Origin: Dudresnaya verticillata
Taxonomy: Eukaryota
Assembly: GCA_977862235.1 (NCBI GenBank)
Contig: OZ374565.1
Coordinates: 310,001 to 374,000, forward strand
Reading direction: 5' to 3'
Length of the DNA: 64,000 nucleotides
Made by a program: the position numbers and the translations under genes. The number at the start of each line of letters is the position of its first letter. Position 1 is the stretch's first letter. Under the pieces are notes generated by a model. The model was not told the origin of the DNA and made no database searches. It saw nothing but the letters and a program-made list of their open reading frames with translations. Below are positions 18,122 to 41,900 of the stretch, piece by piece.

Positions 18122-20188
18122 TTAAGCAAGCTTGAATACCACGCAGTAATTAGGAGAGTTCGAAGTTCCTCGGACACGGAAAATAACTTTCAGGCACTTC
18201 CTGTCAATCCTCTCGAACGGCCGCGGGTCAAAACGATTCGGCACAACCGCGTACTGCCCATAGCGGGAAGATGCCGCAAATAGCTTCCCTTTCGCTCGAG
18301 TCTCCTGGCCATTGGGTTTCACAAATACAGTGCGCAATATTGCAGAGCGCAACACCCCGGGATGCCTCCCATCGAGCAAGTTCACAACAGGCGGTGTGAA
18401 CTTCTTCTTGAATATCGGCTCACCAGGAATCAGAAACGCTGGAATCCCAGTCGGGAATGTATGGAATCGCAGCAAGCAGTGGTAGCTTGCGCTTCTACAT
18501 GCGTCTTTAAGCGGTGCGGGTGTTGGGGCAGCAGCTCCCAAACAAAGATCTCCAGCCAACTTATTCACTTGCGAAGAGAGCACTGCGAATGAAGGTGCAC
18601 GCAGAGCGAAGCTGGGACTTGATGCCAGATCTTCTAGGTACTTTCCGGCCACTCCGTTTCCAATTCCGACAGTAAGAATTGCTATTCCGTGGCTCTTCAC
18701 TGACGCTGATATATTGGTTACCCGAGGAACGGCATTGTCCCTTCCGTCTGTTACCACGACGAGAAGTTTCGTCCCTTTCCTTGGGTGCAGATCATTGAAG
18801 CATGCCTGAACACCAGCAAACATGTTCGTGTATCCAATCGTCCCCTTCAGAGCTGTGATAGCAGGCATGAACTGTTGCAATCTCTGCATAGTCATAGTGC
18901 GGACCGATTTCGCCCGAATATTGAAGGTGTGAGCAGAGTAATAAGCCATAGGACTCCTCAAGGCGACCTGCCTGGAGGTTTCCCGCACAAATTCCTTCTC
19001 CATTTCAAGTTCAGCGGCGCTCATCGATCGACTGTTGTCAATTGCGAAACAAACGTTGTCGACAGGGCAAGGCGTCGGTGATGGCGACACAGATGGGGTG
19101 ACAGAGGTTGATGGGGTGGCAGAGGTTGATGGGGTGGCAGAGGTTGATGGAGTCGGTGATGGCGACCCAGATGGGGTGACAGAGGTTGATGGGGTGGCAG
19201 AGGTTGATGGAGTCGGTGATGGCGACCCAGATGGGATGACCGAGGTTGATGGGGTGACAGACGTTGATGGAGTCGGTGATGGCGACCCAGATGGGATGAC
19301 AGAGGTTGATGGGGTGACAGACGTTGATGGAGTCGGTGATGGCGACCCAGATGGGATGACAGAGGTTGATGGGGTGGCAGACGTTGATGGAGTCGGTGAT
19401 GGCGACCCAGATGGGGTGACAGAGGTTGATGGGGTGGCAGAGGTTGATGAAGTCGGTGATGGCGATACAGATGGGGTGGCAGCGGTTGATGAAGTGGGTG
19501 AGGCAGTTGGTGTAATTGTAGGCGTAGGGCTTGTTGTCGGGCAGGGAGAAGTCATCGAGACTTGGCACGAAGCCTTCGTAGCTTGTTGAATGACAGAAGC
19601 CAAGTTTCCGAACCTTGCGTTGATGTAGAATGCCGGACTGCTGGCAACTTGTTTCAGAAAGGCTTCGCTTATGCCACTGCCGATGCCTATTGTGACAATG
19701 GCAATACCATTCCTAGTCTTCAAGGAATTGGCAAAAGATCGGGTTGACGAAGGATTCCTATCAACTCCATCAGTCAGGACCACAACCACACGGTTTCCGG
19801 CTGTTCCAACAAGCGACCTACAGACTGCTAAGCCACTCGCAATGTTCGTTCCTCCAGCGGTTTGGGTTGTGCTCTGGATTGCATTCTTGAAACTGGAAAT
19901 GCTTGAGGTACTAGTAGACACCGTGCGAGCACCATTTGAAAAAGAAGCTGCGCTGTACCTAACAATTGCCCCTGGGTTTGCAGCAGCAACAGCATCAGCG
20001 AACGATGAAACAAAGCCCTTCTGCTCTAGAAATTGGGGGGAAGTGATCGATCCACTCTCATCCAATGCGAAACACACATGTTGAATGGAACAAGTCGTTG
20101 TCCCCGTTCCGCATGGCGGCGGAGATGCAGCTTTTGCGCTGGAAATGATTCCAAGCAAAACACAGAGCAAAGAAAAGAACGTCTTCAT
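18122..20188 (-). CDS. Secreted protein with two von Willebrand A domains separated by a Ser/Thr/Pro mucin-like linker (688 aa)
   Basis: Signal peptide MKTFFSLLCVLLGII, MIDAS motifs FALDESGS...TN...LTDG and FAIDNSRS...TN...VTDG, and a TPSTS/PSGSPSP repeat linker. The ORF is intact. Confidence 0.92.
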   Translation of the reverse strand: MKTFFSLLCVLLGIISSAKAASPPPCGTGTTTCSIQHVCFALDESGSITSPQFLEQKGFVSSFADAVAAANPGAIVRYSAASFSNGARTVSTSTSSISSFKNAIQSTTQTAGGTNIASGLAVCRSLVGTAGNRVVVVLTDGVDRNPSSTRSFANSLKTRNGIAIVTIGIGSGISEAFLKQVASSPAFYINARFGNLASVIQQATKASCQVSMTSPCPTTSPTPTITPTASPTSSTAATPSVSPSPTSSTSATPSTSVTPSGSPSPTPSTSATPSTSVIPSGSPSPTPSTSVTPSTSVIPSGSPSPTPSTSVTPSTSVIPSGSPSPTPSTSATPSTSVTPSGSPSPTPSTSATPSTSATPSTSVTPSVSPSPTPCPVDNVCFAIDNSRSMSAAELEMEKEFVRETSRQVALRSPMAYYSAHTFNIRAKSVRTMTMQRLQQFMPAITALKGTIGYTNMFAGVQACFNDLHPRKGTKLLVVVTDGRDNAVPRVTNISASVKSHGIAILTVGIGNGVAGKYLEDLASSPSFALRAPSFAVLSSQVNKLAGDLCLGAAAPTPAPLKDACRSASYHCLLRFHTFPTGIPAFLIPGEPIFKKKFTPPVVNLLDGRHPGVLRSAILRTVFVKPNGQETRAKGKLFAASSRYGQYAVVPNRFDPRPFERIDRKCLKVIFRVRGTSNSPNYCVVFKLA
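19072..19500. repeat. Coding minisatellite (60-bp unit built from 18/24-bp subunits) in the vWA gene linker
   Basis: aggttgatggagtcggtgatggcgacccagatggg recurs every 60 nt. The array is 318 bp shorter in copy 2. Confidence 0.95.
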
Positions 20189-22775
20189 GCTACCTCTTAA
20201 ACAGATGGAGAGGTTGCGCTTACGAATTAAATCCCAGAAACGAAGCCAACACTCTGTGTGTCGGCCGATAACAGTCTGAACACTTTCCCTGAAGCCAGAG
20301 CCCCTTGAGTTCAGAAGGGTCTTAGTCTTATATACTGTCTTATTTGAAAGACTTCCCTGATATCTTAGATGTTACGTCGGAGCAGAAGTTTTCACCATCT
20401 ATCGACACATTCAAGACGATAGGTTTATACCGACCACGGGTTTATTTAAAATGTTTATGTACCTAGTCAATCGCCAACGATTTCCTGCTTATTGCAGGTT
20501 TTTCTTAATAGAAGAAACAATGCCAATCGACTAGCGTTCTGCTTGTAACGTCGCCATGCCCCCCTCTGATGCAGGAAACTTGTTCGAAACTGTGAAGTGC
20601 TGCACAGTAAGGCACAGGAAGGTACGTAAAAGCAGCAAATCTACAAAAAATGGTGCCTAGTCTTCCCATGGATTCAGAGAGGTCATTAGATAGACATCTG
20701 CGGGGAAGAGTAAGAAGGACATCCAAGTCTGTATAATAAATTGGCAAAACTGGCAATGCCGTAGTCCATAATTTAGGAAGCTCTTCGAAATGGTGAGGCA
20801 CTGTTATGCATGCACTACATTTACAGGATGTGTAGAATATATAAGAAAGAACGCGGTCGTGGTGCATGAGATAACTCACAAACCTTATTGAAAATGCACA
20901 TTTTACACAATGAGCCTCCAGAGAGACTGGTCACTGAACCAGACTCGTTCATTACTGCAGGGAGGGTCGATGTAGAAAGCGAGAGACCGCGTTGGGGTAT
21001 CTGCCTGATTGTAGCGCGGCATTGCTCACCATCTGTCACAGAGTACAGTACGTCACTATCGCGAGCGCTGATTATTATATCCCGATTTTTTCTGCAATAA
21101 GTATTAAACGTGTTAGAATCCAGAAATGCATCTTTCGCTGCCTGTGGAACAGCAGTACCAAGAGGCAGTCAATCCGATGCATGGCGCTTATGTACAAAAT
21201 GGCACCTCTGATTAAACTGGTAGAAGGCGTTTCTGCTGGGTATATACGTCACTTGCGGCGTAACAGAACTGCATTACCGCACAAATTGAAACCCGAACGG
21301 CGGGGCCTTAAAATAGCTGCTTCAGTACTCCTCGAGATTCATCGACATGACCTATTGCAAACGGAGACCTGATTACAAAACAAGAAAAAAACAACAGGAG
21401 ACTCAACAGGGGCGGGCTCACCCGTCCCCTGTAATTTCATTATTGTATTGAGAGAGACCTTTATTAAAGAACAAGAGTTTATTGTACTGTGTAATCGGCA
21501 GGGGGTCTTCCTAGGACACATCTCTTTTCGCACATAAGCCCATCAATCGACCGTGTGAACGTTAAACAACAAATAAAATACAACAACACATAGAAATTGC
21601 TCTTGTTGCGAAACCAATCGACAGTTTTATAAAATGCTCACCCTTTTCTGCAACATGTCGTTTTAATTCTAATATTATTGCAATCTGTGTCGTTCTGTTG
21701 TCTACACTGCAGGATCGCGTGCTACGGCGTCGGTGGCGTCGAGAGCGGCGCGGCGCATTGTGCGCGGCGCGCGTGAGCGGGGCCGGCGGGGCGAAGGCCG
21801 CGCGCGAGCGACTCGCCGCCATGGTTGCTCGCGGTCGGACGGGGGGAGGGGGCGGGGGGGACGCGCGAGCTGAGCTCGGCACGACGGGCGCGGCGCGAGG
21901 CTGATCTGCGCGTTGGGGCGGGGAGTGAGAGCTCGCGGCGCGGCATCGGCACGAACGGCGCCGCTGCGGTGCGCGGCGCGCGCGCATTGGTCGAGGCGCG
22001 GGGCGATTGGAGTGTTTCTGTGAAGGGTTCTCGCTGCCGCGTTGCACACGTGTATCGAGCGTTTCTTGTGTGACCTGCCATGAAGGCTTCATTGCAGGCA
22101 TCGCGCAGACGCTCCTTGTGCCCACTATGCACTACCACTCTCACAATCCGCGCAAGGTCCGGAATGCTGCAAAGTAGACCTCCGGAAGCATTCCCTCACT
22201 TACAAAACACCGGCACCCTCCGCGGCACCGCCTTCCTTTCGTTCACAGCACTTTCGATACCACCCCAATTCCACTTTTGTTAGTCGACAACTTCGCGTGC
22301 TTCCATGCTCCTCATTCCGCAGCCTGCTCAACCTAGTTCTATCACTCGGATCGACCATCTCATTCTTCAAACGTTCACCGAGGCAATAAAGTTGACAAAT
22401 TCTCTCGAGTTCCTATTTTCAATACTACCCATGGGAAGCAAAACAATATCACTCCCATAAAGAGAGTCGCGAGATTTAGCTTTGCACCGCAGTAACCGTA
22501 GGCCCCTTCATTGTTCAATGCCAATTAACTCCAACAAAGGGCATGATGACCAACCTTAGTGGTCTTTCCATCATTTCCATTCAGAAAAATCCATACCATA
22601 AGAATCCCCTCGACAGAGCTGCTCGCTCCCTTGTGCTTGTGCTACCTCATATCAACTCCCCATCCGATCCGACCCTGTAGCAACCTCCAACGTTTCCCGC
22701 ATGTTCCTCGGCTGCAAGGGCTCGTCACTGAAAAAAGAAACGGACTACCTTGCTTGACATAACTCTGCATCGATA

Positions 22776-23360: not shown

Positions 23361-24980
23361 CACCCCAACAATGTGGAACGGGTTTGAAGAGCCGTAGTAG
23401 CTACTACAGTAACAACGTACCAATCTACCGAGATCATGGAAAGGCATGAGAAACTCTAAGCTCCCTGGTCTTTCCCTTATGCGGGACAAACATAATCAAG
23501 ATAGCTTTTCTTGACCCGAGTATAATTTGCCTACCTCGGTAATGATGTGAGTTCGTGGTGGCTGTTAACCGCCGTGCACTCTTTGACCGTTGCCTTTCAC
23601 ATGAATTGTAAGCAGGTCCCCTTAAGGGCTGTAGTCTTACCTATGCATAAAGGGCTCCCTCAACGTATTGTTTGCTTGTTTAGGCCAGGGCTTTGCCGCG
23701 TACTATTGCGGTCTATTTTTCGTCAGTATTGACAATATGCAGTAATATTGCAATACTGAGAGAAAGGGCAATATTTATTGCTATTTGGTCCAATGTTTCA
23801 CCAGATCGATTCCTCATATGCTCTATGAATTATATTCAGTCCAACGAGTCGGTATCACTATCATATTGATGACATTGATGTAGTAGACAGCACCCGGACC
23901 AACAGCATTAGTAGAATGTTGTCTGTCCAGTGTTCTCTCGATGACATATGAATGCAATCTTAGGCCCATTCGTTACTGTTTGGGTGCACTCCGACATATT
24001 CTATGAACAATTCCACGATACTTAACATATGCAGTGCAAGAGAGCAAACGTCTGGCCTTGGTAACTACTCTTGCTGTCGTTTTAAAGTGGACTCTTTTCT
24101 GTGTGTGAATCGTTTGATGCGTGTGTGTTGTGTCGTGCTGTCTATGTATGAACAGCCGAGGCTATGTAGAGCCTCTTCGCCACAACAAAATACTACGAAA
24201 GGAATGTATCTGAGATATACTGGCACTACGAGCTGTCACAACGCTAGCGGTATATTATTGCCGTAGCTTTGGTGACACTCTACTATCAGAATGCAGCTGC
24301 AGTATTCGTGGAGTGCACTCTCTTACATGCAATACTTAGACAACTGCCCTATACATACATATATATCTACTATTGAGATATATATTCAACTATATAAATA
24401 GTAGCATCTTTTCAGTCTGAAGACTATTTCCATAATGGCCTCGTTCTTTTCGTAATGGAACTGATACGGCGTTACCAGGAGCACTGTTCCTTAACACAAG
24501 CAGCATTTCTTATCTCTCAACTTTTAATTCCTTAAAAGAAATACGTCAGCAGGCTGTCGACATCAAGAAAGAGACGACCGCATTTCGAAGCCCAGCATTT
24601 GAAGGTTGTCAAGGTACAACCGAGTAAAGGCTTAGAAGCCTTTAGGGTTACGGTACCTAATTACAGTGTCTTACACCTGGTGATATCGAAAGTGCAGAGT
24701 TTGTATGGATCTGGGGCGAATCAGTAGTTCCGGAGAGAGAGGACGAGTTTGAAGGTCCAGTGGAAGGTATAGAACGTACCCCATTGTGCACCCATTGCCC
24801 GAGAAGCACAAACATACGATTTTATGGCAGTGCAAATCCACAAGGGGTCCCCAATATCTGATCTGATTGTCGGCGACAGGCCGTCTGCTCGACATCGCCT
24901 GATAGAGCGTGATGCGAGGACGTGAGAATATTAATTTCTATCACAGATTCGAGTCTGTCTGGGTGTGGTGCAGTTGACAG

Positions 24981-25590
24981 TGTTACACATAGCGCTCGCA
25001 CTGTTTGGGAGTACTCCCTACAATGGGATCCCAAAGCGCACACGCGACGCTGCAGGGTAATTCCCTAGAATGGGAGCCTGCTGGGGAACGCACTGCTGAA
25101 CAATGGCAGACCCCACGGCCGATCATGGCTATCGCGCACAGACCTGGTGAACCTGCACAAGGCAGAACTGCCGGTCTGACAAGGCGAATTTGCGTCCCTT
25201 CGGACAACCCTCTACATCTTATTGGCTAACGCTCAGGGTCCCCTGACAACAGGGTTCAGACCTGAATGACTTTCCGTCCGTCCCCGACCCACTGTGGGAC
25301 GGCGGGTGTGAACACATCCACCTGTTCAGGTCTATCTGACTTGGAGCGGATCCCGCGAGCATGCGGGCCACAAATACTGTGGGTCGCTTTGAGCCGTCCG
25401 GCTGTAGAAATAATAAAGCCAGCACGCTGGCGTCGAACGACGAAGACGAGGGACAACACACCACTCCTCATCCACGCCGTGACTTTGCCCTCCACTTTGC
25501 CAACCCCAACTTTCTCTCTACCGACCTTTTACTTTTCCTTTTCGCGTTCGCGATCTACTGCTTCGAAGGCAAAAGCGGTTACGCGTCACA
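24981..25590 (+). repeat. 5' LTR (610 bp)
   Basis: TGTTACAC...GCGTCACA, about 8 differences from 38341-38950. Confidence 0.95.
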
Positions 25591-25674
25591 GTAATTACTT
25601 TTCCCCGGAGTAGTTTCGTTTTTGTTGACGAAGCGAGATTGTGTTCACGGTGACCAGCACTAGGAGTGCTACGA

Positions 25675-28508
25675 ATGGATCCAATGCCCAAGATTCATGC
25701 ACAAAATCCGTGTCCGTCAGACGATCGTCGAAACGGTGGAAGCGAAGGCTGATAGGACTGTCAACGGCTGACTTCGTCTTGTTCAAGCACGATCGCGAGA
25801 TCTATGAACGACGAGTCGCTGAGAAGAATTCGGATCCGAATGTTAAGATCCAGCTTACGACCTACAAGGACTCTATTCTACCTGCTGTGCTGGAGATCTT
25901 CGCACTAGGTGACTGGGTTCCGATGGACACCGTTGATGACACCTGTAGTAGAATGGCTTTGAAGCCAACAGAGACGGCGACACGGCACGACAGCTGTCCT
26001 CAAAGAGCGATCCCACTCGCGTGGTTGGTAGCTCGGTAAAGGGGTGGTAGAGACTTGAAAGGGCTTAAAGCCCTAACAAAGGAAAAAGGGATAGGCGAAC
26101 CCTGCTGAATAGAGCAATTCGTCGTAGACGACAGGGCTTGTAGACGCCCAAAGGGAAGTTGTAGCGGTAGCACCGTAAGCGTCCAAAAAGGGGAAAACCC
26201 AAGGCACAGACCGCTGCCGGTTTAGTGCCGGGCCCCTGCTACTCAGGGGCCCCATAAATACAGCGAGAGCCGAAAAGTGCTCCTCGCTCAGTTAGAGCTC
26301 TATGGCTAATACTTAGCTAATACTGTACAATACAGGTACGATATATCCTTAGATAGGAATGAGTGGTCAGGCCACAAGGCCCGCGCGGCGCCACTGTCAG
26401 GCGCCGTGCGGCAAACATCCGCCAGCAATGCATGGCGCGATGGTGCGGCCATGGTTAATCCCCAAATGGCACAGGGCCATATTATCTGGAGCAGTGTGCC
26501 CTACAGATCAACTCTGTACACGTGTTGCCTTACAGCGCAGGAGCGTTCCAGCAATGAAATCAATCGGAGCACCAGCCATGTCATCCGGGCAGTTGTGCGC
26601 CCGTCATTCCTTACAGAGGACTCGTGTCCACGTGGCTCCTTACAGGGCGTCAACGCCCGTTGTACCACAACATCACGGAGAACAATCTTGAGGACTGTGT
26701 GGCCAAGCAGGCTGTAGTTAATCCTGATGATTATGATCTTGGAAAGCTCGATGATTCCCTCAATGACTAGAAGCTCGGACGAGCGGATAGTGAACACAAC
26801 CTAGAAGCCCAAGTTTAGCAGCTGATCTTTGAATACACCAAGATCTTACAGAACTGTGGTTACAATAAGTTTGCCGAACGGCACCCGAAGCTTGCCGTGG
26901 AGCACATACTGAAGCGTATCACTCACCCGTTCCTGAAGAACCGCATGATCATGACTGCGCGTCTGAAGAAGGACGAGGACTTTCAGAATAACTTCAAAGT
27001 TTTCGTACGAGAACTCGCGAAGGAGGCGCGGCTGATCGACCGCATGAACGCCGCCAAGAAATACAAAGCGCCCGCTACCGCTTTCGACAAGTTTGCTACT
27101 CGTGTTGCGGATGATCCGCCGCCGACGGCGCCATACCGATCGGGTAGTTCCGGTTCCGGACGTAAGAATAAGAACCGTTGTAATAAAGGTGGTGCATCTG
27201 GCAGTACTGCAGAAGATGGGAACCACAATCAAGACAAACCGTTCGGTGGTAACGATGGCAGAGGTAAACACTTTCGCGAACCTCCCTATTGTCTCAACCC
27301 AAAGTGCGACAAGCGCCATTGGGTTGATGACTGTGAAATAACTGCGGACGCAGAGAAGAAACGTCTCAAGGATGAGTGCCGTGCGCGTTCGCAAGCGCGC
27401 AAGTGATCGAAGCAGGACTCAGAGAAGCGAGAAAACATCGGATCTGTAGAACTACCTACCGAAGGAGAACACACTTCAATGTTCTCAGCCTCATTCTGTT
27501 CAGGTGCTGTAGAGGTGTCCGCCTTAACCGATCAAGGTTCGGATGCTAATCTAATTTCACCATCAGTACTGAAGGAGATCTTACAGGCTGACCCAGATGT
27601 TCGAGTTGTGACTCTACCAAAGAAGCTGGAGTTCTCCAATGCTCATTCTTCTGCGGTGAAGATCACGTGCAGCAGGCAAGTATCCGCTGACGTAATGCTA
27701 CGCGTACGCCATGGTACGAACCTCATGTTGCGAGGAATGAAGTGGCTGGTCACAAACGCTGCAGTACAGCACGTTTATGTCGGACGACATGTTCTCGCGT
27801 CTATAGGGTTGAACAACCGTGTCATGCTCGAGTTCGCGGCTGATAGATTCGGAGGAGTCGTCGACGTCCCAGAAGTTCTTCATAAGGATGGGAGTGGCGA
27901 CAATCCTTGCGCCGACGCCGGTGCGTCTATCCATGGAATCCTTCGCGAACGCGGTTTGGATTTCGGAAGCACCTTCCACAGCAAAGGGGGTGCTGAGGAC
28001 GATCAACTCGAAGACAGTAACGTCTACGTCGATCTTGGCGAGGACTCGCCGGATGATTTGAAACAGGCGATCGCCGCAATGGTCGAAGACGCTCGCAACA
28101 ATGGACTGAGCGATACCGGAGCCGAACGGCTGACCTCTATCCTGGACAGGTACCCGGTTTTCGGATTCGGCTGGGCAAATCCCAACCAGTCGACGTTCCG
28201 CCAATGAGGGTACGACGTCAACAAGGATACCGACCGGTACGTTTGAAAGCAAGGAGATACTCCGGTGAACAAAGGAACTTCCTGAACGCGCGCGTCGTAC
28301 GCGTACGTGGATCGGCTCAAGGAGATGGAATTTTCGAGGAGATGACAACCGCCGAATGGCAAGCGGCACCTCTCCTTGTGCCGAAGCCTGGTTCCAGAGC
28401 TGGGTATCGTATGACCGTGGACCTTCGCCCGGTCAATGGCGCGACAATCAAAGAGTCGTGGCCAATGCCTCATCTGGACAGCGAGGTGTATGATTTCTCA
28501 GGGAGCAC
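25675..28508 (+). pseudogene. gag, protease and N-terminal RT of the Ty3/gypsy element
   Basis: Gag with PYCLNPKCDKRHWVDDC knuckle, protease ALTDQGSDANLI, and RT start APLLVPKPG..YRMTVDLRPVN..WPMP. Interrupted by a solo LTR, stops and frameshifts. Confidence 0.9.
25944..26669 (-). mobile_element. Solo LTR (726 bp) inserted in gag
   Basis: TGTAGTA...TACCACA with TSD acacc/acatc. Removing it restores gag reading VDDITENNLEDC. Confidence 0.88.
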
Positions 28509-29347
28509 TGTGGTGCAAGGGAAGGGCTGCCCCTTTTTCGCTGTGAGCGTATTATATGCCAACGTCTACCGACGGCACGTCGACCGCCGTTGGCGCGCGA
28601 ACACGTCATGGACGGTTGGCCCACGGGCATACGGCCGCCGTTACCCGGCGCGGCGCACGCGCCCACTGTACGGCCAGATCCAGATGCACGATCCGGATCG
28701 GCCAGGCGCAAGGCGCACGCCTGTAAGCCTGGCCCGGATCCGGATCGGATCCGGATGGGACATCGGGATCCGGCATCGGGATCCACAGTGATGTAAGGAG
28801 CGCGTCTGTAATGGCCGCGCGCCAGCAATGCTGGTAGGGATCTGGATCCGAATCCGGATCACCCACAATGCTACACGCATGCGCCTATAAGCTACTCCTG
28901 AGCTCCCGCGCGCGCGGCTGCATGGCGACGACGACGTGTCAGACACTCGACGACGCGACACGCGTCCTGAGTCCCCGCGCACCGCGCCTGCCGCCGTCAC
29001 TCACGTAGTATATGAGGTAATCCGTCTGAGACGCTGAGTAAATCCCGGACAAGCCGGCCTTGGTCCAGACTTCCCCGTTCCGCACGCGCGTACCCTACCG
29101 CTGCCTACGGCTAAGCGTCTACCTCCCGTGCTTCTACGTCTACCATCGTCCTTGACGTGCTCCCTTTCTGTTTCCTTTCCCCTTCCTTCACACCTTCCGC
29201 CTCGGGCGTCTACAGTCCGCCCAAGGCGTGCCCCTTTTGCTCTACCAACAACTCGCCCACGGCGGGACCACCTACCGCCAAGGGCGCAGCTACCCACCGA
29301 GCCCCGCACTGCTCGGCGGTCTATCGTCTCGGACGTTTTGCACCACA
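28509..29347 (+). repeat. LTR A (839 bp) followed by a primer-binding site
   Basis: TGTGGTGCAA...TTGCACCACA, then TGGTCTCCCGACC at 29350. Confidence 0.8.
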
Positions 29348-29551
29348 TCTGGTCTCCCGACCTAAAATTGTGCTACGTTTCAACGAGTTACTCCGTCGTG
29401 CGACGTCCGACTCTTCGTCTTCAGACTTTTGTCGCTAATCGTCCACGACGTTCAAGCAACTCTACGATTGTATCATGGCCTCACGACCGCCGCCGTCGAG
29501 AGGCCCAAGTTCAAGAAGACCGTCTTCGACGCCAGGGAGTGTACCCGCGTC

Positions 29552-30426
29552 ACAAGCGCCCTCGGAATGCAGCCGCGCGCCTGACACATTTGCCCACGCC
29601 ACCGCGCGCGCCGCGCTAATGCTTACACCTACACGTGTTCACACACCGCGCTTACAGACTCTTGGTCCCATTGTCCTCCGCTGCCCTGTGACACGTGCCA
29701 CGTGTGCAAGTATGCCACGGGGCGCAGCAGCGTGACCCAGTAACTACACCTCACGCGTTCTCTCAACCCGACATTGCCGTCACTATCCGCTGTGAGCGGG
29801 AGGTCTGGTTCTTGACCAAGTTGCCCGACAAAGTCGAATGACTGTGTCAGGCGCGCGGCTGCATTCCGAGGGCGCTTGTCACACGCACGACGGAACGACA
29901 CGTGTCCTGAGTTCCCGCGCGCCGCAGCGCCACCGCCGTCGCCCACGCAGCAGTAGTAATACTTAGGTAACCCGTCTAGGACGTCCCAGTAAACCCCGGC
30001 AAGCCGGTATGCCTTCACACTTCGCCCCTTCGCTCGTTAGCGTCACTGCCGCTACCGACGTTGGCTACGCGTTGCGACGATCGCGCTTCCGCGTCAATGT
30101 CCGTCTTTGACGTGTATCCCCTTTTGTTTTCCCCCTTTATGGCCTTGGTAGCCGAATGCCCCTTCCCGCTAGTGTGTGCGTCGCCACCGCTTCCGTTAGG
30201 CAAAGCGTCGGTACCACCGTCCCTCCACGTGCAACACCGTCGTTGACGTGTTTCCATTTCCGTCTTGTCTCGTTTCTTTGGTTTCGATCTACCTACCGCC
30301 CAGGGAGTTTACAGTCCGCCTTGTGGCGTTGTCCATGCTCTACCACCCCTACCGTCTCTGACGTGCTACCCGCCGGGTCTCGAACTGCTCGGGCGTGCTT
30401 TTCCGTCCTAGACGTTTTGCACCACA
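29552..30426 (+). repeat. Rearranged 5' LTR B (U3 part inverted) followed by a primer-binding site
   Basis: 29552-29843 is the reverse complement of 34334-34625, and 29844-30426 is a direct copy of 34590-35171. TGGTCTCCCGACC at 30428. Confidence 0.85.
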
Positions 30427-30919
30427 TTGGTCTCCCGACCTAGAAAGTGCTACGTTTCTACGAACTGCAACGTCGTGCGACGACCGATCAACCGCTTTCA
30501 AAGCGTTTCGCTACTCGTCCACGACATTTTTCTACATTTTTGAGAATACTGTGGGTTCGTCCCGACCATCACTGTCTCCTGGGTCCTCTTCAAGGCGCCC
30601 GTCATGGACGATTGGCAGTGAGCCATCGTTCGAATGGTCAAGACGCATGACGATGAAGTCGGAATACCGTGTCCGCCCCGTGTTTGCTTCGGCTCTCCCG
30701 GCTATGCCGATACGCGACGTTTCCGACCGTTCGCCTAACAGGGGATCGTTATATCCCCTGCCGAACGTGTCGTCATCCGTATTTCCGCCTCTGGCGAGTC
30801 TGCCCTCCGTGCATCCGAGCGCTCAAGTTCAAGTCGAACAATAGAGCGTCGATGACGGAGCTCAAGCCGGCTTGGCCGAGGATCCACTGGATATTGTGAT
30901 TCCGGACACCCATCCCACC

Positions 30920-33435
30920 AAAAACGTCGTTGACGTTCAAGACCGCAGTACGCACCAATACGTCTTTGACGATTCATCGGTTCGACAGAGTCGGTGTAAC
31001 ACTTACCCGTCTTGAGACGTTGGAAAAATATCGAAATCGGGCCCTCCGGGGTCTCCACTTGGTTGTTGATCGTTGTTGACGTTCTGCACGCGACTTCGCG
31101 TTCCATGCCCGGCGTGCCGCTTTGCACCGTCACAGACGATTCATTCGCATGGTTACTCACGACATGTGGACCATGTTGCCTTTTCCGTCACGGACGATCA
31201 CCGATGCGTAGTCAGCCGCACTATCTCGCTTAAGCGATTGATACCGTCATCGACGCTTGGAACGCGACCAACCGTCTCATGGCGCATTTTAGCGTCAAAG
31301 ACGATTCTTGGATCGTGGTTACTCACGCCATACTGTGTTTTCCATCATCGACGATTGCAGACTCGTGATCACCCGATCCCTCTTGCGGTATATCGTCGTC
31401 GACGTCGAGTACACAGAAGCCTGGCACATGTGGTTTCCTTATCGTCATGGACGTTTCATGCCACGATAATATCGGTGCCATGCTGCTCTCTACCGTCACC
31501 GACGATTCCCGCTCTGCTGCAACCGGCCTATTGCCTTGATATCCCGTCAATAACGTTTCGCCGTATTCGCTTTGCGACATGTTGCTTTTTACCGTCATTG
31601 ACGTTTCCTGCTCTTCAGTCGCGCGGTGAAGCCCACGCAACGTCGCTTTATACCGTCACTGACGCTTTGCAGCACTTGGTACCCGTGGTCACAAGCAAAG
31701 ACAGCTTCGTATCGTCTTCGACGTTTCGTATCGTCATCGACGTTCTAGTGCATTCGGTCAGCCACTTAGTGCGATATAGCACCGTCGTCGACGTTCTCCG
31801 GCTCGTGGTCATCCGAAACGTGCCGTTTCCTGTCGTCATCGACGTTTCGTATCGTCATTGACGTTTTGGTGCGGGTCGCGGCTCGCACACGGCTCGCACA
31901 ACCCTGTGCTATGCCGAAATACGCCGTCACAGACGTTCTGCCGTTGCGCGTTCACTCGCAGCACACAGAGACGTTTCCCGGCTTGCGAATCACCGCGCCA
32001 TGCCAGCTCAATACCGTCATAGACGTTTTCCCGGCTCGCGGTAACCCGTGCAGTGCCATTTGGTGCCGTCGTCGACGTGCTCAGGCTCGCGGTCTCCGGC
32101 AACGGCGTCTTCGAATCGTCATCGACGTTTTGTATCGCTATTGACGTTTTAGTGCACGCGGTTGCCCTCCTCGAGCCACACCTCACCGTTGTCGACGTCT
32201 TAAGGATCGCGGCACCCGCAAAGTGCTGCTTCATACCGTCATCGACGTTGCGTGTCGTCATTGACGTTACGTGCACGCGATCACACGCGAACTGCCAAGT
32301 TTACCGTCACAGACGTTTGCAGACTCACGGACAGCTGCCATGTGCCGCTTCGTACCGTCATTTCACAGTCATGGACGTTTTGGTACTCGGGGTCAACCGC
32401 ATGTGCCGCCTCGTGCCGTTACCGACGTTGAATATCGTCATTGACGTTTTGTTGTACTCGGTAACCCATGCCGTTCCACTTCGTACCGTCATGGACGTCT
32501 CATATCCTCATCGACGTTTTTAGTAGGGGCAGGCTCCTAACACGGCCGCTCAATATCGTCATCGACGTTGCATACCGTCATTGACATTTTGGTCAACGCG
32601 GTCACTCTTGTCGACCCCTTTTGCAACGTTGTCGACGCTCAATAGCGTCATTGACGTTTGGGACACGTGGTTACCTCCACTGTGCACCTTTTCACCGTCG
32701 TCGACGTTTGAACGTTCGTGGTCCACCCGGTCACCCGCCACAGCTGCTTCTTATCGTCATCGACACTCAATGTCGTCATCGACGTTTTGGGGCACGCGCT
32801 TACCTGCGAAGTGCCCCGTTTCACCGTCATCGACGTTGGCACGTTCGTGGTCACCCTGAACGAGCCGCTTCGTATCGTGATAGACGTTGCATATCGTCAT
32901 TGACGTTTTCGTTCTCGGGTAAGCAGAAATGTGCCGAATCTTATCGTTATCGACGTTACATATCGTCATTGACGTTTGAGGCCACACGGTGATCCGCCGC
33001 GGCCGCTTTGCATCGTCATTGACGTTTTCCGGCTGAGGCGCACTCGCGCCCTGCCGCGCTATATCGTCCGAGACGCTTCCGGGCTGGCGCACAACTGCGC
33101 CATCCCAGGATATACCGTCTCAGACGTTTTCTGGCTGGCGCACACCCGCGCCATGCCGCGCTATATCGTCCTAGACGCTTCCCGGCTGGCGCACACCTGC
33201 GCCATCCCAGGATATGCCGTCTCAGACGTTTTCTGGCTGGCGCACACCCGCGCCATGCCGCGCTATATCGTCCTAGACGCTTCCCGGCTGGCGCACACCT
33301 GCGCCATCCCAGGATATACCGTCTCAGACGTTTTCCGGATGGCGCACACCCGCGCCATGCCGCACAATATCGTCACAGACGTTTTCCGGCTGGGCCGCAC
33401 CCGCGCCATGCCGCGCCATATCGTCAAAGACGCAA
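30920..33435. repeat. Array of ~55 palindromic CGTC-N3-GACG(TT) motifs, mostly at ~50-51 bp and 19 bp spacing, grading into a homogeneous 51-bp tandem repeat (33040-33435)
   Basis: Examples are atcgtcatcgacgtt, accgtcacagacgtt and atcgtcattgacgtt. Intervening sequence is divergent except in the last ~8 units. Confidence 0.9.
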
Positions 33436-33529
33436 CCGCACGCATTAGCGTTTTTCATACCATCCCTGACGATCACGCCCGCCGATGGCGGTTCACTGCA
33501 CGCCGCGCCGAACGTAAGAGCCCCCGACG

Positions 33530-33900
33530 CATGACTGGTGCGCTCCGCCTTACAGACGAATGGCCTGTGCACAAGGAAATCAAGCGCTAATTGGTGCGCT
33601 TCAGCTTACACCCAAATTGGATGGTGATTGGTGCGCTTCGCCCCGCGCGCAAATTGGACACTCATTGGTGCGCTTGAGCTTACAGGCACGTGACCTGTGC
33701 GCCAGGAAATTGAACGCCCATTGGTGCGCTTCGCCTTACACCCAAATTGCGCGCTCATTGGTGCGCTTCGCGCTGCACGCAAATTGGACGTTGATTGGTG
33801 CGCTTGGGCTTACAGGCACGTGACCTGCGCACACCCAAATTGAGCGCTCATTGGTGCGCTTCACGCCGCACGCAAATTGAACGCTGATTGGTGCGCTTCT
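33530..33900. repeat. Nine ATTGGTGCGCT motifs in a 37/37/56-bp higher-order repeat
   Basis: Copies near 33534, 33589, 33627, 33664, 33720, 33757, 33794, 33850 and 33887. Confidence 0.88.
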
Positions 33901-34187
33901 GCATGCCGTCAAAATTTATCGTTTATTTATGCGCGTGGACGCCCGGCTACTGCGCAGCGCTGGTAGCCGCCCTACACGGGGATAACCGTCTTGGACGTTC
34001 TACCACCGGTGACCTCGGAGCCCTGGGCACACCGCTACTAGTGAATTGCTCAAGTCGTCTTATGACGGGAAACTCGGCAACGCCGCACGTCCTTGAGGGG
34101 AATGGAAGTGACATAACCACGGCACGGCCGGTAATAATACGTTCCTCACGAATTTGCTTCGCGTGTTCGCGTTTTGGAAGGGGGCCA

Positions 34188-35171
34188 TATGGTGCAAATT
34201 ATCCAACGCCGCTGGCGCTCTGTACCGTCCTAGACGGATAGCTCCCGTCTTTGACGTTTCTACCGCCTTTGGGGACTGGGATTGAGCTCGAGGCGCGAAC
34301 CCGCTCGTGATCCCTGTTTCCGCCGATGGCGCTAGTCATTCGACTTTGTCGGGCAACTTGGTCAAGAACCAGACCTCCCGCTCACAGCGGATAGTGACGG
34401 CAATGTCGGGTTGAGAGAACGCGTGAGGTGTAGTTACTGGGTCACGCTGCTGCGACCCGTGGCATACTTGCACACGTGGCACGTGTCACAGGGCAGCGGA
34501 GGACAATGGGACCAAGAGTCTGTAACCGCGGTGCGTGAACACGTGTAGGTGTAAGCATTAGCGCGGCGCGCGCGGTGGCGTGGGCAAACGTGTCAGGCGC
34601 GCGGCTGCATTCCGAGGGCGCTTGTCACACGCACGACGGAACGACACGTGTCCTGAGTTCCCGCGCGCCGCAGCGCCACCGCCGTCGCCCACGCAGCAGT
34701 AGTAATACTTAGATAACCCGTCTAGGACGTCCCAGTAAACCCCGGCAAGCCGGTATGCCTTCACACTTCGCCCCTTCGCTCGTTAGCGTCACTGCCGCTA
34801 CCGACGTTGGCTACGCGTTGCGACGATCGCGCTTCCGCGTCAATGTCCGTCTTTGACGTGTATCCCCTTTTGTTTCCCCCTTTATGGCCTTGGTAGCCGA
34901 ATGCCCCTTCCCGCTAGTGTGTGCGTCGCCACCGCTTCCGTTAGGCAAAGCGTCGGTACCACCGTCCCTCCACGTGCAACACCGTCGTTGACGTGTTTCC
35001 ATTTCCGTCTTGTCTCGTTTCTTTGGTTTCGATCTACCTACCGCCCAGGGAGTTTACAGTCCGCCTTGTGGCGTTGTCCATGCTCTACCACCCCTACCGT
35101 CTCTGACGTGCTACCCGCCGGGTCTCGAACTGCCCGGGCATGTTTTTCCGTCCTAGACGTTTTGCACCACA
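34188..35171 (+). repeat. 3' LTR B (~984 bp)
   Basis: PPT ggaaggggg, then TATGGTGCAAA (TG mutated) ... TTTGCACCACA. Confidence 0.75.
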
Positions 35172-35606
35172 TCTGACACGTCGTCGTCGCCATGCAGCCG
35201 CGCGCGCGGGAGCTCAGGAGTAGCTTACAGGCGCATGCGTGTAGCATTGTGGGTGATCCGGATTCGGATCCAGATCCCTACCAGCATTGCTGGCGCGCGG
35301 CCATTACAGGCGCGCTCCTTACATCACTGTGGATCCCGATGCCGGATCCCGATGTCCCATCCGGATCCGATCCGGATCCGGGCCAGGCTTACAGGCGTGC
35401 GCCTTGCGCCTGGCCGATCCGGATCGTGCATCTGGATCTGGCCGTACAGTGGGCGCGTGCGCCGCGCCGGGTAACGGCGGCCGTATGCCCGTGGGCCAAC
35501 CGTCCATGACGTGTTCGCTCGCCAACGGCGGTCGACGTGCCGTCAGTAGACGTTGGTATATAATACGCTCACAGAGAAAAAGGGGCAGCCCTCCCCTTGC
35601 ACTACA

Positions 35607-38300
35607 AGCACGTGTTTCGCCTCCCTGGATTTCGTGTCGGGTTATTGGCAGCTTCCACCGCATCCCGATTCCTACACCGCGTGTGGCGTCATCACACCGC
35701 GCGGGGTAATGATATCAAAACGCGTGTTGGATGATCTGGCGAACGCCCTGGCTTTTTCCAGAGCTCGGTCGAGCCTCTATTCGCCAGCCTGCGTGATTTT
35801 CTGAAGGCATGGCTGGACGATTTCAGCCTTCACGCCCCATCCCAGGAGATTCTTTTGGACAATCTCGAGATTTTTCTCTGCATTTGTAAGGAGAAGAGAT
35901 TGTGGCTTTCCGCACGGAAATGCAAACTCTTTCGCAAGAAACTTCGCTGGTACGGTCGCATTGTGTCTGGAGAAGGGTACACACTCGACCCCACACGTCT
36001 TTCGGGTTTGCAAGAAATGGGAACCCCGAAGACTGCGGAAGAACTTGCGCAGTTCATCTACTGCTATCGCTGGATGTCGCTCGCCATCCCCGACTTCGCG
36101 CGCCGCATCGCGCCGCTCAACAACATCTGGGAAGAGGCGTACGCCAAATCTGGAAGCGTACGAAGAGATCTATCCGCACGATCGCGCTCAGTAACCTGTC
36201 TTGGGGGTCCCCGCATGAGAAGGCCTTTCTCGATCTTCAAGACAGCCTACGGACCGCTGTCACCCTCTCTTATCCGGATCCGGACAAAGCTATTTGCGTA
36301 TTCACCGATGCGTCCGAACGGTTCTGGTCTGTCGTTGCCACGCAGTGCGACGAATTAGATCTGAAGAAGCCGGTCGGCGAACAGAAGCATGAACCCCTCG
36401 CATTTTTGGGTTCCCAGTTTACAGGCGCATCGTTGAACTGGTATACCTTCGAGAAAGAAGGATTCGCGGTGTTCCAGACCTTTGAGAAACTCGACTACAT
36501 GCTGCTTGGTCACGCGCGTACTCACGCGTTCACGGATCATCGAAATCTAATGTTCGTGTTCGCACCTCTTGCGCTGGAACCAGCTCTTGGAAGGCACATT
36601 GTCTCAAAAGTTCAACGTTGGGCTCTGTACTTGTCCAAGTTCAGCTACGTCATTGAGCACATCAAGGGAGAAGAAAATGTGTTTGCAGATATTCTTACTC
36701 GCTGGGTCAAGGGCTACCGCAACGAGAAGTCAATGCTATGCAGCGTTATACTCGGAGAAGCTGAACAGCTCATCCCTGCCGCCGACGCAATTGTCTGGCC
36801 GGATATCGAAGTGATTCGCGACTCACAAGCGTCTCACACACGCACTGAAGGAGTTCTCCTTGACGAGGATGACAGATTGTGGAAGAAAAGAAATCTCTTC
36901 TAGATTCCGAAGGAGGACCTCGAACTCAAGCTCACAGTAATTGTGTGTTCACACTGTGGTACAATCGGACACCGAGGTATGGATGCAACCAAGAGCATCA
37001 TACTCGAGAACTTTTGGTGGGAGACCAAGAAGGAGGATGTCGACGAGTTGGCTCGCGGATGCCTACACTGCATCGTAACTCGTACGGGGGAGATCGTCCC
37101 GAGACCGCTCGGACACGCTCTGCACGGCGAACGCCCTAATGAAGTTGTCCACGCCGATTTCCTTTCCATGGGTCAAGGTGTGGACGAGAAGAAATACGTC
37201 CTCATCATACGGGACGACTTGTCCTCGTAAATCTGGCTTTGGCCAACAGACGAGGCGGACGCCAACGCTGCCGCTGCTGTCCTGAACTCCTGGGTTGGCA
37301 GCTTTAGTTCTATGGATTGGCTGGTCAGCGATCAGGGCTCCCATTTCAAGAACAAACTACGCAAGGAGATGGTGGAAGAACTGCGTTCGCAACATCATTT
37401 CACCACGGCTTATTCTCCGTGGGCGAACGGTTCCGTCGAGAGAGTTTGCCGCGAAGTCCTTCGTGCGTGCCGCGCGCTGCTCAGCGAATGGAAGCTATCG
37501 CCGAAGGATTGGCCTACAGTAACCGAGTAGAACATCATCAATCAAGCTCCGCTTCGGAAGCTCGGCTTCGCGACGTGGAAGTGCCAGGTGTACACCGCAC
37601 TCCGCTCGAGGTCTTCACAGGACATCGATCTGTGCGTCCTCTACTGAGAGCCTTACCGAAGAACAAGTACCGGTCGGCCAAAACAATCGAAGAGCTACGC
37701 GCACGCGCGCTTCTAAACATTGATCAACTCCAGGATGCGTTGTTCAACGTTCATCGAGATGTGAAAGAGATCTCAAGTGCTGCGCGGAAGAGAAAGGTTG
37801 ACCAACACAACAAGCGCACGAACGTTCACCGCGCTAACTTCATCGAAGGCGACTTTGTCCTCGTTCATCGCGCTCAGCCCGGTGGACACATGCTGAAATT
37901 GGTTTGGCGAGGACCTCGCCGCGTCACACAAGTCCGTTCGGAATGGGTCTTCGAGATACAGAACCTCATAACGGACAAAAGGGAAGTGGTGCACGCGCGC
38001 CGCTTACACCTTTACCGCTCGGATATGGATGGCAAGGAAGTCCTTCCTGCACTGCTTAAAGCTGCGGAGCACTCCGAGACAAGCTACCAGATTGCCGAAC
38101 AAATACGCGGCATCAGCGAAGTTGATGGGAACTCCAGATTCACTTGGAGTGGAGTGGGCTCCCCGATGAGGTCGACTGGACCTGGGAAACCTTTCGCCAA
38201 GTCTTCGAGGACATGCCTGGACTGCTCGAAGATTTTCTCCACACTGCCGGGACCCGCAGTCTCAAACGACGCGCGCTCGCGCAATGCAATTTCTCGTAAC
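35607..38300 (+). pseudogene. RT C-terminal part, RNase H, integrase and chromodomain of the Ty3/gypsy element
   Basis: LDFVSGYWQ and AWLDD; RNase H FTDAS, EKEGFAV, TDHRNL, NVFADILTR; integrase H-x5-H...CLHC, HADF, SDQGSHF, NGSVER; chromo-like LEWSGLPDEVDWTWE. Several stops and frameshifts. Confidence 0.93.
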
Positions 38301-38340
38301 CAAGCTTCTTTGTTCACGCTGAACAGAAGCTTGGGGGCAC

Positions 38341-38950
38341 TGTTACACATAGCGCTCGCACTGTTTGGGAGCACTCCCTACAATGGGATCCCAAAGCGCA
38401 CACGCGACGCTGCAGGGTAATTCCCTAGAATGGGAGCCTGCTGGGGAACGCACTGCTGAACAATGGCAGACCCCACGGCCGATCATGGCTATCGCGCACA
38501 GACCTGGTGAACCTGCACAAGGCAGAACTGCCGGTCTGACAAGGCGAATTTGCGTCCCTTCGGACAACCCTCTACATCTTATTGGCTAACTCTCAGGGTC
38601 CCCTAACAACAGGATTCAGACCTGAATGACTTTCCGTCCGTCCCCGACCCTCTGTGGGACGGCGGGTGTGAACACATCCACCTGTTCAGGTCTATCTGAC
38701 TTGGAGCGGATCCCGCGAGCATGCGGGCCACAAATACTGTGGGTCGCTTTGAGCCGTCCGGCTGTAGAAATAATAAAGGCAGCACGCTGGCGTCGAACGA
38801 CGACGACGAGGGACAACACACCACTCCTCATCCACGCCGTGACTTTGCCTTCCACTTTGCCAACCCCAACTTTCTCTCTACCGACCTTTTACTTTTCCTT
38901 TTCGCGTTCGCGATCTACTGCTTCGAAGGCAAAAGCGGTTACGCGTCACA
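38341..38950 (+). repeat. 3' LTR (610 bp)
   Basis: Direct repeat of 24981-25590, preceded by ttgggggcac. Confidence 0.95.
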
Positions 38951-41900
38951 AGAGCAATGAGGAAGCGATGATTCTTTTTAATGAATGTGTACGGTGGTCT
39001 TATGCGTGGGGCTGTTCCCGACAGGCAAGCATACCGGTGGGGTTTGGGTCTATCCTATGGAAGGGTTTGAGTTATGTGAGAACCTAAAGGGTTTTTTGGG
39101 GGACCCGAAAGGGTAAATTCGTGCCTGCAGGCGTCTCGGATGGACGAGATTGCACCGACGATGGCGCAGAGATTACATGCGCCAAGTGATGGTAGCGAAA
39201 GGGCTTTCAGAGAATGGGCCAGGAGTTGGGCTTCTTCGTCGAAAAATGGGTACCGAGGCGGGATGAGGAACGTCCAGACGTGCCACTGATTTCCGCTTTC
39301 CTCCTCTGCGGTTCGACAACTTCAAGACAGGTGCTAACCGGTTTGCAGAGTACACAGGGCCAGGGAATCGCCCAGATAATTCCGCAAACCATTCTTGTAG
39401 CAGCGCTTCGCGCAATTCCCTCTGCGCTCCTGTGTGTCGGGGTGCTTGGCACCAAAAACACGTTGTGTAGTCTTAACAGCAAGTGTTATTTGAGCAAGCC
39501 GGGAGCTCAGAAGTTTTGCTACGTCAACAAGGTTTCGTAACCCGCGCGCATCATAGTGCCCTAAAACGTATGCTGAGCGTTAGAAAAGGATGTTCGATGC
39601 GGAAGAGGTCCCTGAGATCCTGCTAACGTGTGGCAGTGGTAACAAAATTGCCGTCAGGAACGCAAAAGCTGCTCTAGAAGTCACTCAGAGGGACACAGGT
39701 GTAGAGAAACCTCGGGGTAGAGGACAGGAGTCCGTCTACAGTACGTTTAATGTGGTGAAGTGGGGTCGGCTGCGTACGAGCGCAGATGAAGTGCCTAGAT
39801 ACGCAGGGTAGTGTGCAATCGCAAGCGTAGGTTCAGATGCCGCAGGTCTTCACTTAGGCTGAAATGTATAGGACTATTGCCGATTGGCATCACAACACTT
39901 TACGTATTTGTACAGACGGACCTACGCTGTATAGCGACTAACTTACCCAAGAGCCGGCAGCTCACACTGTTGCTCAGTCAGCAGTGGCTGCGACGCTTCC
40001 CCGGCTCGGGTTCACGGAGAGCGCCTCTGGGTGGCGCTTCGGCCAAAAGACACAGCCAATCATGGCGGTTTACATTTACGGTGCCGTCACGAAACGCAAA
40101 CCGCGAAGCTCCGCACCAATTACAAAGCGGAGCGCCGCTTAACATTAATTTTGTGCACTCTACAGTACGCACTGTACTCTAATTTATGGGAAAATTCCCC
40201 CGGTCAAGGACACGCGATGGACTCCGCGATAAGTTAGAGCGAGGATGGTATGCCGCGGCACGGAGGGGAAGGGTATTCGGTCAATGCAAAGTTTACTTAG
40301 GCGTTACAACGCGGAAAGGTCCACTAGCTAATCGGGCGCTCCCCCACTCACACCAATCTACTATCCCTAGGGAGCGTCCGATGCGAGCACTACAATGAGG
40401 AAATGACGTCAGTCCGAGTCAGAGTCCATTAGGTCAATGACTTCGTTTGGGCGCAACGGCGGATTCGCAACGGGGCCTTGCCCTGGCATCATGGTCACGC
40501 GACGGACCTCGCGTACCATGCGACGACCGCGGCCGCGCCGAGCTCCGACTCCCCGCGCCGTAACTTCACCACCCGCCTCGCTAGGCCCGGAATCTCCATC
40601 GCCAGACGGCGCGTCACCCTCCTGGACACCCATGTCCTCTTCCTAGAGCTCCTCCTTGAGCAGCAGCTCCGTCTTGACAATAACCTCTTGCGGCTCAGCC
40701 GCCGCCGGGGGAGATTCAACGGCGTTAGCAGGAAGGGTCAGCTCGAGTTGCAAACCATGGCCAGCGGGCACTTCTGGCACGGGTAGGTTGACCGTTACCT
40801 CCATGGGTGAAGAAGTCGGGGCGCTCTCCTCAACGGCTCCTACCGCCAGCTGCGAAGCTGCAGCGGTTGGAGAATTGGTATGCGGACCCGAGGTAGCGAC
40901 GGAAGACCCTTCACGCGGAACAGCGGATGTATCGGCAAGCGTGCCCTCGCGCGGATCCGCACCCTGTCTACCACCGACTGGTGCCACGGGAGCACCCATA
41001 CTTGGCAGCGAAACAGCGCGACTGTCTTGATGACCCAAGCCCAAACGGGAACGGCGCTGAAGTCGCGGGTCTCTTGAAACGGAAGCGGAAGCTGAGGCGC
41101 TCGGCGCGCTCGCCGCAGCTGAAGGATCTGCCACAGCGGAACCCAACACACTCGGCGCGCTCGCCGCAGCCGAAGGGCCTGGAGCCACGGCACTCGTCGG
41201 AGCTTCCTGAGCCTGCTCCGACTCCACGACGGTCTGCTGACCGACAGGCGGAAGCGCGGCTAACGACGCCTTCAACGCCTCGATGGGCCCCGGTGAGCTC
41301 ACCCAGTTCGACTCATAGTTGCAAAGGACGTCTTCGACCCAATCCGCGAGACTGTAGAGAGTCAGATGGGTCACCTCCCAATGGACAGCCAAGCGGATGG
41401 CGAGACCTCGACGGTTGAATAAGTCCCGAATGGCGGCATCAGCCCTTGCGACGTTTCGCACTCTGGGTGCGTACGGACCCTGGGGCTGTCCCGACACAGT
41501 AGTGTCCATCGGCGGCACGTCAGCCGGAGTCGCGGGAGCCTCGCCGGAAGCACTATGCCAGTCTTTGGTGTAACCAGTCATGCGCTCACCGGTGTCAACG
41601 AGAAGCGTCTCACCTTCGGCGGGTTGCGGTTGCAGCAGATACTACGGTAGGAGAGGGTGCCACTGCACCGGGTCGAAGTCGACCCAATCACCACGGTCGT
41701 ACACCGGCGTCACAAACCCGGTGTCCTCCGGAAGGTAGCGATTGCGCTTGCTCACACGACTCCAACGAATGCGTTCGACGAACACGAGGAGCGCCTCCAA
41801 ATCCGTAGCGTCGACAGCTGTCGTGGTGAGTAGGCCAATTCCAAGTCCCCGGATCTCGGTGCGCAGACCTGCGTTGATGTAATACAAGTACCCCCGACGG

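Follow-up and report, generated by a model that had tools for sequence, protein, structure and literature searches.

An insert with opposed LTR ends under a single target-site duplication inside a Ty3/gypsy reverse transcriptase gene

How can an insertion that carries the marks of a long terminal repeat (LTR) integrase end in inverted rather than direct repeats? The locus that raises this question lies in a stretch of 64,000 nucleotides, referred to here as the window (the whole stretch of DNA that was analysed). It consists of an insert of 7,098 bp at positions 28509-35606, located inside a Ty3/gypsy reverse transcriptase (RT) gene, with the pentanucleotide AGCAC duplicated at its borders. 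The insert shows the TG...CA termini and the 4-6 bp target-site duplication (TSD) of a canonical LTR insertion, whereas its terminal LTRs are inverted, unlike the direct LTRs of a canonical LTR retrotransposon insertion. A first-pass annotation had offered three interpretations of this arrangement: a foldback-like element mobilised through two U3 ends, the integration of one cDNA into another, or the flipping of an LTR through its short terminal inverted repeat. The insert is real and unusually legible.

The two copies of AGCAC match each other and are found at 28504-28508 and 35607-35611 on the plus strand, the left one within the host RT gene, and the RT-like codons to the left and right of the insert share one frame. 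A contig of a single sequencing run (X1, with a word share of 0.05 with the window) is approximately 96% alike and joins position 28503 to 35607, skipping 28504-35606, with five letters that fit either side. This joint represents a natural empty site in another copy of the host family, and AGCAC is therefore a true duplication, so that the perfect TSD inside RT described in the first-pass annotation is confirmed from both flanks. The host is a decayed Ty3/gypsy element (24981-38950, plus strand) with an LTR pair and Pfam-type matches to RT and RNase H, of which the RT match lies under the curated cut-off. Its 610-bp LTRs (24981-25590 and 38341-38950) show 8 differences. Homologues of the host element (n = 96) carry RT, RNase H and integrase domains; the labels among them name one Agarophyton chilense and one bacterial MAG, and three consist of EukProt identifiers only. 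From this thin labelling, we infer that the Ty3/gypsy host probably belongs to a red-algal genome. The flanks of the host LTRs do not match (GACAG / AGAGC), which suggests that the host is recombinant or has an adjacent deletion, and which makes its LTR pair a poor clock. Further copies of the host family were found in X1 contigs. The window additionally carries a near-identical duplication at a 41-kb offset (40,885), whose second copy extends past the window's last position, 64000; should it go on beyond that point, its host LTR would be expected to start close to 65.9 kb and the insertion site to lie close to 69.4 kb.

The inverted arms of the insert (28509-28943 and 35172-35606) extend over 435 nt and differ by 8 substitutions with zero gaps. 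The left arm runs on as a complete LTR of 839 bp (LTR A, 28509-29347, plus strand, TG...CA) that ends in CA and is followed by a primer-binding site (PBS), which identifies the arms as the U3-side end of a genuine LTR. The two ends of LTR A form an exact 10-bp terminal inverted repeat. The right arm, on the minus strand, corresponds to LTR A positions 1-435 and provides a second U3 end, and both termini are thus formed by the U3 end of LTR A in opposed orientation, as had been claimed earlier. A complete 3' LTR of a second type (LTR B, 984 bp, 34188-35171, plus strand) starts with TA and ends with CA exactly at the junction with the right arm (J3). The two LTR types are related, in line with the first-pass annotation, with homology limited to their downstream parts: they align only from A402/B410 on, where they are about 70% alike (local score 228.5; none of 100 shuffles exceeded 57), while the first 400 bp of A and of B show no relatedness to each other (score 34; shuffles reached up to 39.5). 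The leaders of A and B align over 200 nt. This pattern fits a putative pairing of an autonomous-type subfamily (A) with a non-coding partner (B). LTR B begins with TA instead of TG, three bases past the polypurine tract (PPT), and the host 3' LTR starts with TG at equal spacing. As a consequence of the TA start, the U3 end of B is devoid of the opposite-strand CA needed by integrase. For a solo LTR in the window, orientation by homology gave a signal not above shuffles.

From left to right, the insert is composed of LTR A with PBS and ORF start, an inverted patch of B, a truncated B element, and the inverted A(1-435). PBS 1 (29350-29364, plus strand), putatively a tRNA-Tyr-like site, has related LTR-end and PBS sequences in run X1 and in metagenome loci. 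The A leader and the start of a gag-like ORF (ATG at 29475) occupy 29365-29551 on the plus strand, align with the first 200 nt of the B internal region, and stop at junction J1. The segment between J1 and J2 (29552-29843, minus strand) repeats LTR B positions 147-438 in inverted orientation and pairs with 34334-34625 at 4 substitutions over 292 nt; this inner inverted pair is absent from the first-pass annotation. Next follows the left LTR B, which is 5'-truncated by its first 402 bp (positions 403-984, at 29844-30426, plus strand; 5 differences in 583 relative to 34590-35171). PBS 2 (30428-30442, plus strand) is the same as PBS 1, with 15 identical bases starting at 29350 and 30428, and a single PPT (34176-34184, plus strand), located before the sub-terminal LTR B, is the only one to precede an LTR within the insert; both features had been reported in these numbers. 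The B internal region between them (30443-34175, plus strand) holds no recognisable gene and is LARD-like, with tandem arrays of 19-bp, 51/102-bp and 37/130-bp units, and its segment 30820-30988 is matched by one diverged X1 contig. A LARD-type element consists of LTR, PBS, a long non-coding interior, PPT and LTR; part B shows direct LTRs, PBS, PPT and a long non-coding interior, with a truncated 5' LTR. A profile scan of 37 of the 43 stop-to-stop ORFs of at least 80 amino acids (the six left out straddle the insert termini) gave no match above the Pfam cut-off and one sub-threshold match, which agrees with the earlier statement that coding capacity is missing. The pol domains (RT-RNase H-integrase) were not found in the insert.

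The junctions fall into two classes. Both outer ends and J3 (35171/35172) are exact at LTR ends, and J1 (~29551/29552) and J2 (29843/29844) are imprecise. At J3, the right arm begins immediately after the terminal CACCACA of LTR B, as the exact joint proposed from the sequence had implied, and the LTR side offers no microhomology, the B end being mismatched by the base that follows in LTR A. A 5-bp staggered cut at J3 implies A431-435 as the target. A palindrome is centred on this segment; among the 839 positions of LTR A, 5 such odd-palindrome centres have arms of at least 5. As the outer target site lacks such symmetry (arm 0), the J3 palindrome, noticed post hoc, is modest evidence; it may reflect chance or a hairpin effect. 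The retroviral integration target consensus is weakly palindromic (PMC2857682). On the left, an X1 relative matches the end of LTR A, the PBS and the beginning of the ORF (29520-29546) and then diverges; since it follows the ORF up to 29546, J1 lies inside an ordinary 5' region. The 9 bases up to J1 equal the end of the host LTR, and J1 was considered as a second integrase junction, a match that we judged to be chance because the X1 relative shares the ORF up to 29546. Also dropped was an R region spanning B403-438, with the inner junctions as natural RNA ends; the sole TAAA in A (531) and in B (549) is downstream. UAAA is given as the main poly(A) motif of the red alga C. merolae in PMC6413133.

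Could the structure be an artefact of assembly or library preparation, such as a fold-back chimeric read? In favour of this idea, J1 to J3 fall outside the cover of X1 contigs, as does A-U3, though a gap of this kind is no proof, and the window holds the 41-kb-offset duplication. However, all 8 differences between the outer arms and all 4 within the inner pair are substitutions, unlike copies of a single molecule, and a TSD in register with an empty site is not expected of a chimera. We hold this to be the least credible of the explanations weighed. It is also highly improbable that two A elements inserted independently into the same 5-bp site, in opposite orientation and in two host copies, which were then fused by ectopic repair at J1/J2. 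The mismatched host flanks, which point to a recombinant host or an adjacent deletion, and the presence of other host-family copies would suit such a fusion, but one site without symmetry or known target motif must be struck twice, and the X1 copy is empty there.

We lean towards a different explanation, namely that the insert is a one-off aberrant integrant in which the U5 end of B was inserted into an A cDNA, two A-U3 ends were co-used, and template switching closed the inner ends. In this scheme, cDNAs of subfamily A and its non-coding partner B, which share the PBS and have homologous downstream LTR halves, would have been present in one particle. The B U3 end, reading TA, would have been a poor integrase substrate, and the U5 end alone would have been inserted into the opposite strand of an A LTR at positions 431-435, creating J3. 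A single integrase complex could then have inserted the A-U3 end of this product together with the A-U3 end of a second A cDNA, 5 bp apart, generating the TSD. Finally, the loose inner ends would have been trimmed and then bridged by a polymerase copying 292 bp of the B LTR backwards (J1, J2). This last step may have taken place after the chromosomal insertion, during host repair, or before it, through RT template switches in the particle, in which case J3 would represent a one-ended autointegration. The TSD with its empty site, the exact J3 and the TA-reading B U3 end count in favour of aberrant integration, although the TA could be a later mutation.

Every step of this proposed course has retroviral precedent, none of it from an algal element. 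When ASLV or HIV DNA has one bad end, integrase inserts the good end, while the bad one is shortened, primes on templates close by and so becomes linked to viral DNA in one orientation or the other (PMC5041404). HIV-1 integrase in vitro couples U5/U5 and U3/U3 pairs, mostly with 5-bp duplications, and also yields donor/donor half-site products (PMC8742673). Autointegration, likewise, is described for LTR-retrotransposon particles (PMC7197481). Against aberrant integration, several rare steps would be required, none of them observed for the insert; moreover, the short TSD is missing from most one-ended events in the cited HIV work, where U5/U5 is preferred over U3/U3. Among the three interpretations offered at first, cDNA-into-cDNA integration nevertheless remains the best fit, given the exact, palindrome-centred J3 without microhomology on the LTR side, whereas the foldback element is unlikely and the simple flip falls short by itself.

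The simple flip of one LTR was rejected as insufficient, since the inversion covers just 435 bp of the 839-bp LTR and the insert has two additional junctions. The idea survives in a multi-switch version, which is the main rival to aberrant integration. Here, an ordinary A element would have inserted at AGCAC, and B would later have nested antisense in the A 3' LTR at 431-435. Three template switches within one round of replication or repair would follow, leading from the ORF start to the B 5' LTR (J1), reversing after 292 bp (J2), and copying B and A(435-1) backwards until the right flank was rejoined via the 10-bp terminal inverted repeat. We regard this post-insertion rearrangement as possible but doubtful. 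Ordinary elements account for all junctions in it, J1 being a plain deletion and J2 a fold-back, and the exact 10-bp inverted repeats at both LTR A ends offer the homology for the final step; yet that last switch must strike the terminal 10 bp exactly, three successive events must fit within about 1% divergence, and the TA start of B is left as a coincidence. The right terminus is also unlike a U5-type end at base 4. A distant relative (L067) and the window's solo LTR show this same base as their normal U3 state, but the alternative base is present in LTR B and in the left arm, which renders this clue weak. The divergence of the four repeat pairs (8/435, 5/583, 4/292 and, for the host LTRs, 8/610) is homogeneous (p = 0.60), as expected from one event, the age test being a weak one. 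The A arms exceed the B pairs (1.84% versus 1.03%, p = 0.30), which is the direction predicted by post-insertion rearrangement, with the B pairs nominally younger.

Could the insert, alternatively, move as a unit? The proposal of a foldback-like non-autonomous family, moved by an integrase or a Ginger-like transposase via two U3 ends, draws on the TG...CA inverted termini and the 5-bp TSD, a signature of Ginger2/Tdd elements, and on the suggestion, found in PMC2836005, that Ginger terminal inverted repeats (TIRs) derive from two opposed LTRs. To move as DNA, the insert would depend on a transposase capable of excision; according to the same source, excision by LTR integrases is only theoretical (PMC2836005). 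No PPT lies ahead of either A-U3 tip, and neither an internal copy of either terminal 18-mer (up to 4 mismatches) nor one of a circle junction was detected in the insert. Under the standard model of reverse transcription, a transcript of such a locus would give rise to direct LTRs. The right arm is downstream of the only TAAA of B, so normal reverse transcription would yield direct LTRs rather than the ends observed. Furthermore, no transposase or recombinase was recognised among the 37 of 43 ORFs scanned, a DIRS-type internal complementary region (ICR) is missing, the two arms have diverged by 1.8%, and the interior is a mosaic. With U3 ends that cannot be regenerated from RNA and no recognisable transposase encoded, a mobile foldback family is very unlikely. 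The related notion that the insert is a living intermediate between a gypsy retrotransposon and a Ginger-like DNA transposon, an LTR-derived foldback family moved by LTR integrase, has an equally slim chance of being correct. The insert is probably dead.

Relatives were sought in other sequence data. Exact-pattern scans of sequence collections, which need not hold the source species, gave 0 matches. A relaxed metagenome scan returned at least 119 loci; among the matches listed, six look by eye like relatives of the LTR end with PBS, all from one assembly, and the other 113 were set aside as chance. Only one of the metagenome loci listed (L089) has a BLAST match to the window. No LTR-scale inverted repeat was found in the six loci, whose length does not suffice to include both LTRs. 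For L032, a distant PBS relative, the ORF matched no Pfam family and no longer homologue.

As a whole, the insert is probably a single dead copy with no evident function. If aberrant integration is the true reading, it preserves in a chromosome the outcome of reactions documented mostly in vitro and in mutant retroviruses, namely the one-ended insertion into another cDNA and the pairing of two same-type ends. It would further mean that such products can become fixed in a germline, and that opposed LTRs, the proposed source of Ginger TIRs, do occur. Inserts of this type escape LTR finders that rely on direct repeats, and a cross-genome census is therefore feasible and would gauge how often integrase mis-pairs ends in vivo.

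A literature search for an inverted-LTR composite under one TSD, which covered few subscription journals, returned no description of one. Judged by its sequence features, the insert is not a canonical LTR insertion, not a DIRS element, and not a Ginger element despite Ginger-like ends. It resembles DIRS-1 in its inverted terminal repeats (PMC7192593), but differs from it in having a TSD, a PBS and a PPT and no ICR or tyrosine recombinase; ORFs for tyrosine recombinase, RT and RNase H of DIRS type number 0 of the 37 scanned. The TGTNR termini, TIRs and 4-5 bp TSD of Ginger/Tdd elements are all present, with TG...CA inverted termini as in Ginger2/Tdd and a 5-bp TSD as in TDD-4/5 (PMC2836005). 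In contrast to those elements, the insert has no transposase (no Gypsy-integrase-like transposase among 37 of 43 ORFs), and its 435-bp arms are plainly LTR sequence, longer than the 40-270 bp reported for Ginger/Tdd TIRs. Likeness to LARDs is confined to part B, in which the 5' LTR has undergone truncation and rearrangement. In the excerpts consulted, complex and tandem LTR insertions likewise place a pair of elements with two PBS and at least three LTRs under one TSD (PMC1950507; PMC11899658), but their LTRs are direct repeats, whereas the outer ends here are inverted. The inversion circles produced by autointegration of Ty1 and of Arabidopsis SISYPHUS join an LTR end to inverted element DNA, comparable to J3 (PMC7197481). 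Those circles are dead-end products with both junctions, while the insert shows the U5 junction only, has a target of another subfamily, and is integrated; the two ends lying 5 bp apart at one site, as in an autointegration inversion, were not seen, J3 standing by itself and the B U3 end being missing. Closer parallels come from retroviral integration. In two-donor concerted reactions in vitro, two same-type ends are inserted 5 bp apart with a normal duplication (PMC8742673), and compared with the test-tube preference of HIV-1 integrase for U5/U5, the insert is U3/U3 and fixed in a chromosome. One-bad-end integrants of ASLV and HIV-1 similarly have one end exact at CA and the other truncated and followed by inverted element DNA from templated synthesis (PMC5041404); here, by contrast, the one-ended event would have struck another LTR instead of host DNA, and the composite keeps a perfect 5-bp TSD.

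The two inverted LTR segments of the insert (28509-35606) begin at near-homologous LTR positions, 29552 corresponding to position 438 of LTR B (B438) and 35172 to position 435 of LTR A (A435), which aligns with B442. Both B438 and A435 lie near the onset of homology between the two LTR types. At the imprecise junction between the ORF start and the inverted LTR B patch (J1), the nine bases spanning the join (29546-29554) are identical to the final nine bases of the host LTR, a match that we put down to chance.

The flanks of the Ty3/gypsy host element differ, with GACAG (24976-24980) on one side and AGAGC (38951-38955) on the other, and because of this mismatch we regard the host as a recombinant or as an element with an adjacent deletion. 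A third family is represented in the host's gag region by a solo LTR (726 bp, 25944-26669), which is flanked by the target duplication ACACC/ACATC, with four of five bases matching. Separately, a start resembling an A/B-type LTR end is located at 24964, 17 bases upstream of the host 5' LTR.

The segmental duplication around this region is more recent than the insert. Its direct copies (1-23115 and 41203-64000), which extend beyond both window ends, differ by 37 mismatches in 19.1 kb and by 32 in the next 3.7 kb. Each carries, on the minus strand, an RRP5-like gene with S1 and HAT repeats (11105-16323 and 52308-57526), divided among several frames in both copies, for which either introns or decay may account (Pfam analysis covered the first copy), and an ORF with a double VWA domain (18122-20371 and 59325-61256), whose 60-bp coding tandem repeat differs in copy number between the duplicates.

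Among the matches listed, six loci (L001, L003, L032, L067, L089 and L102) occupy short contigs of one metagenome assembly. Downstream of its LTR end and PBS, L032 contains a 498-amino-acid ORF that matched no Pfam family, and a homologue search gave none longer. In all six, what looks by eye like an LTR end is followed by the same PBS as in the insert.
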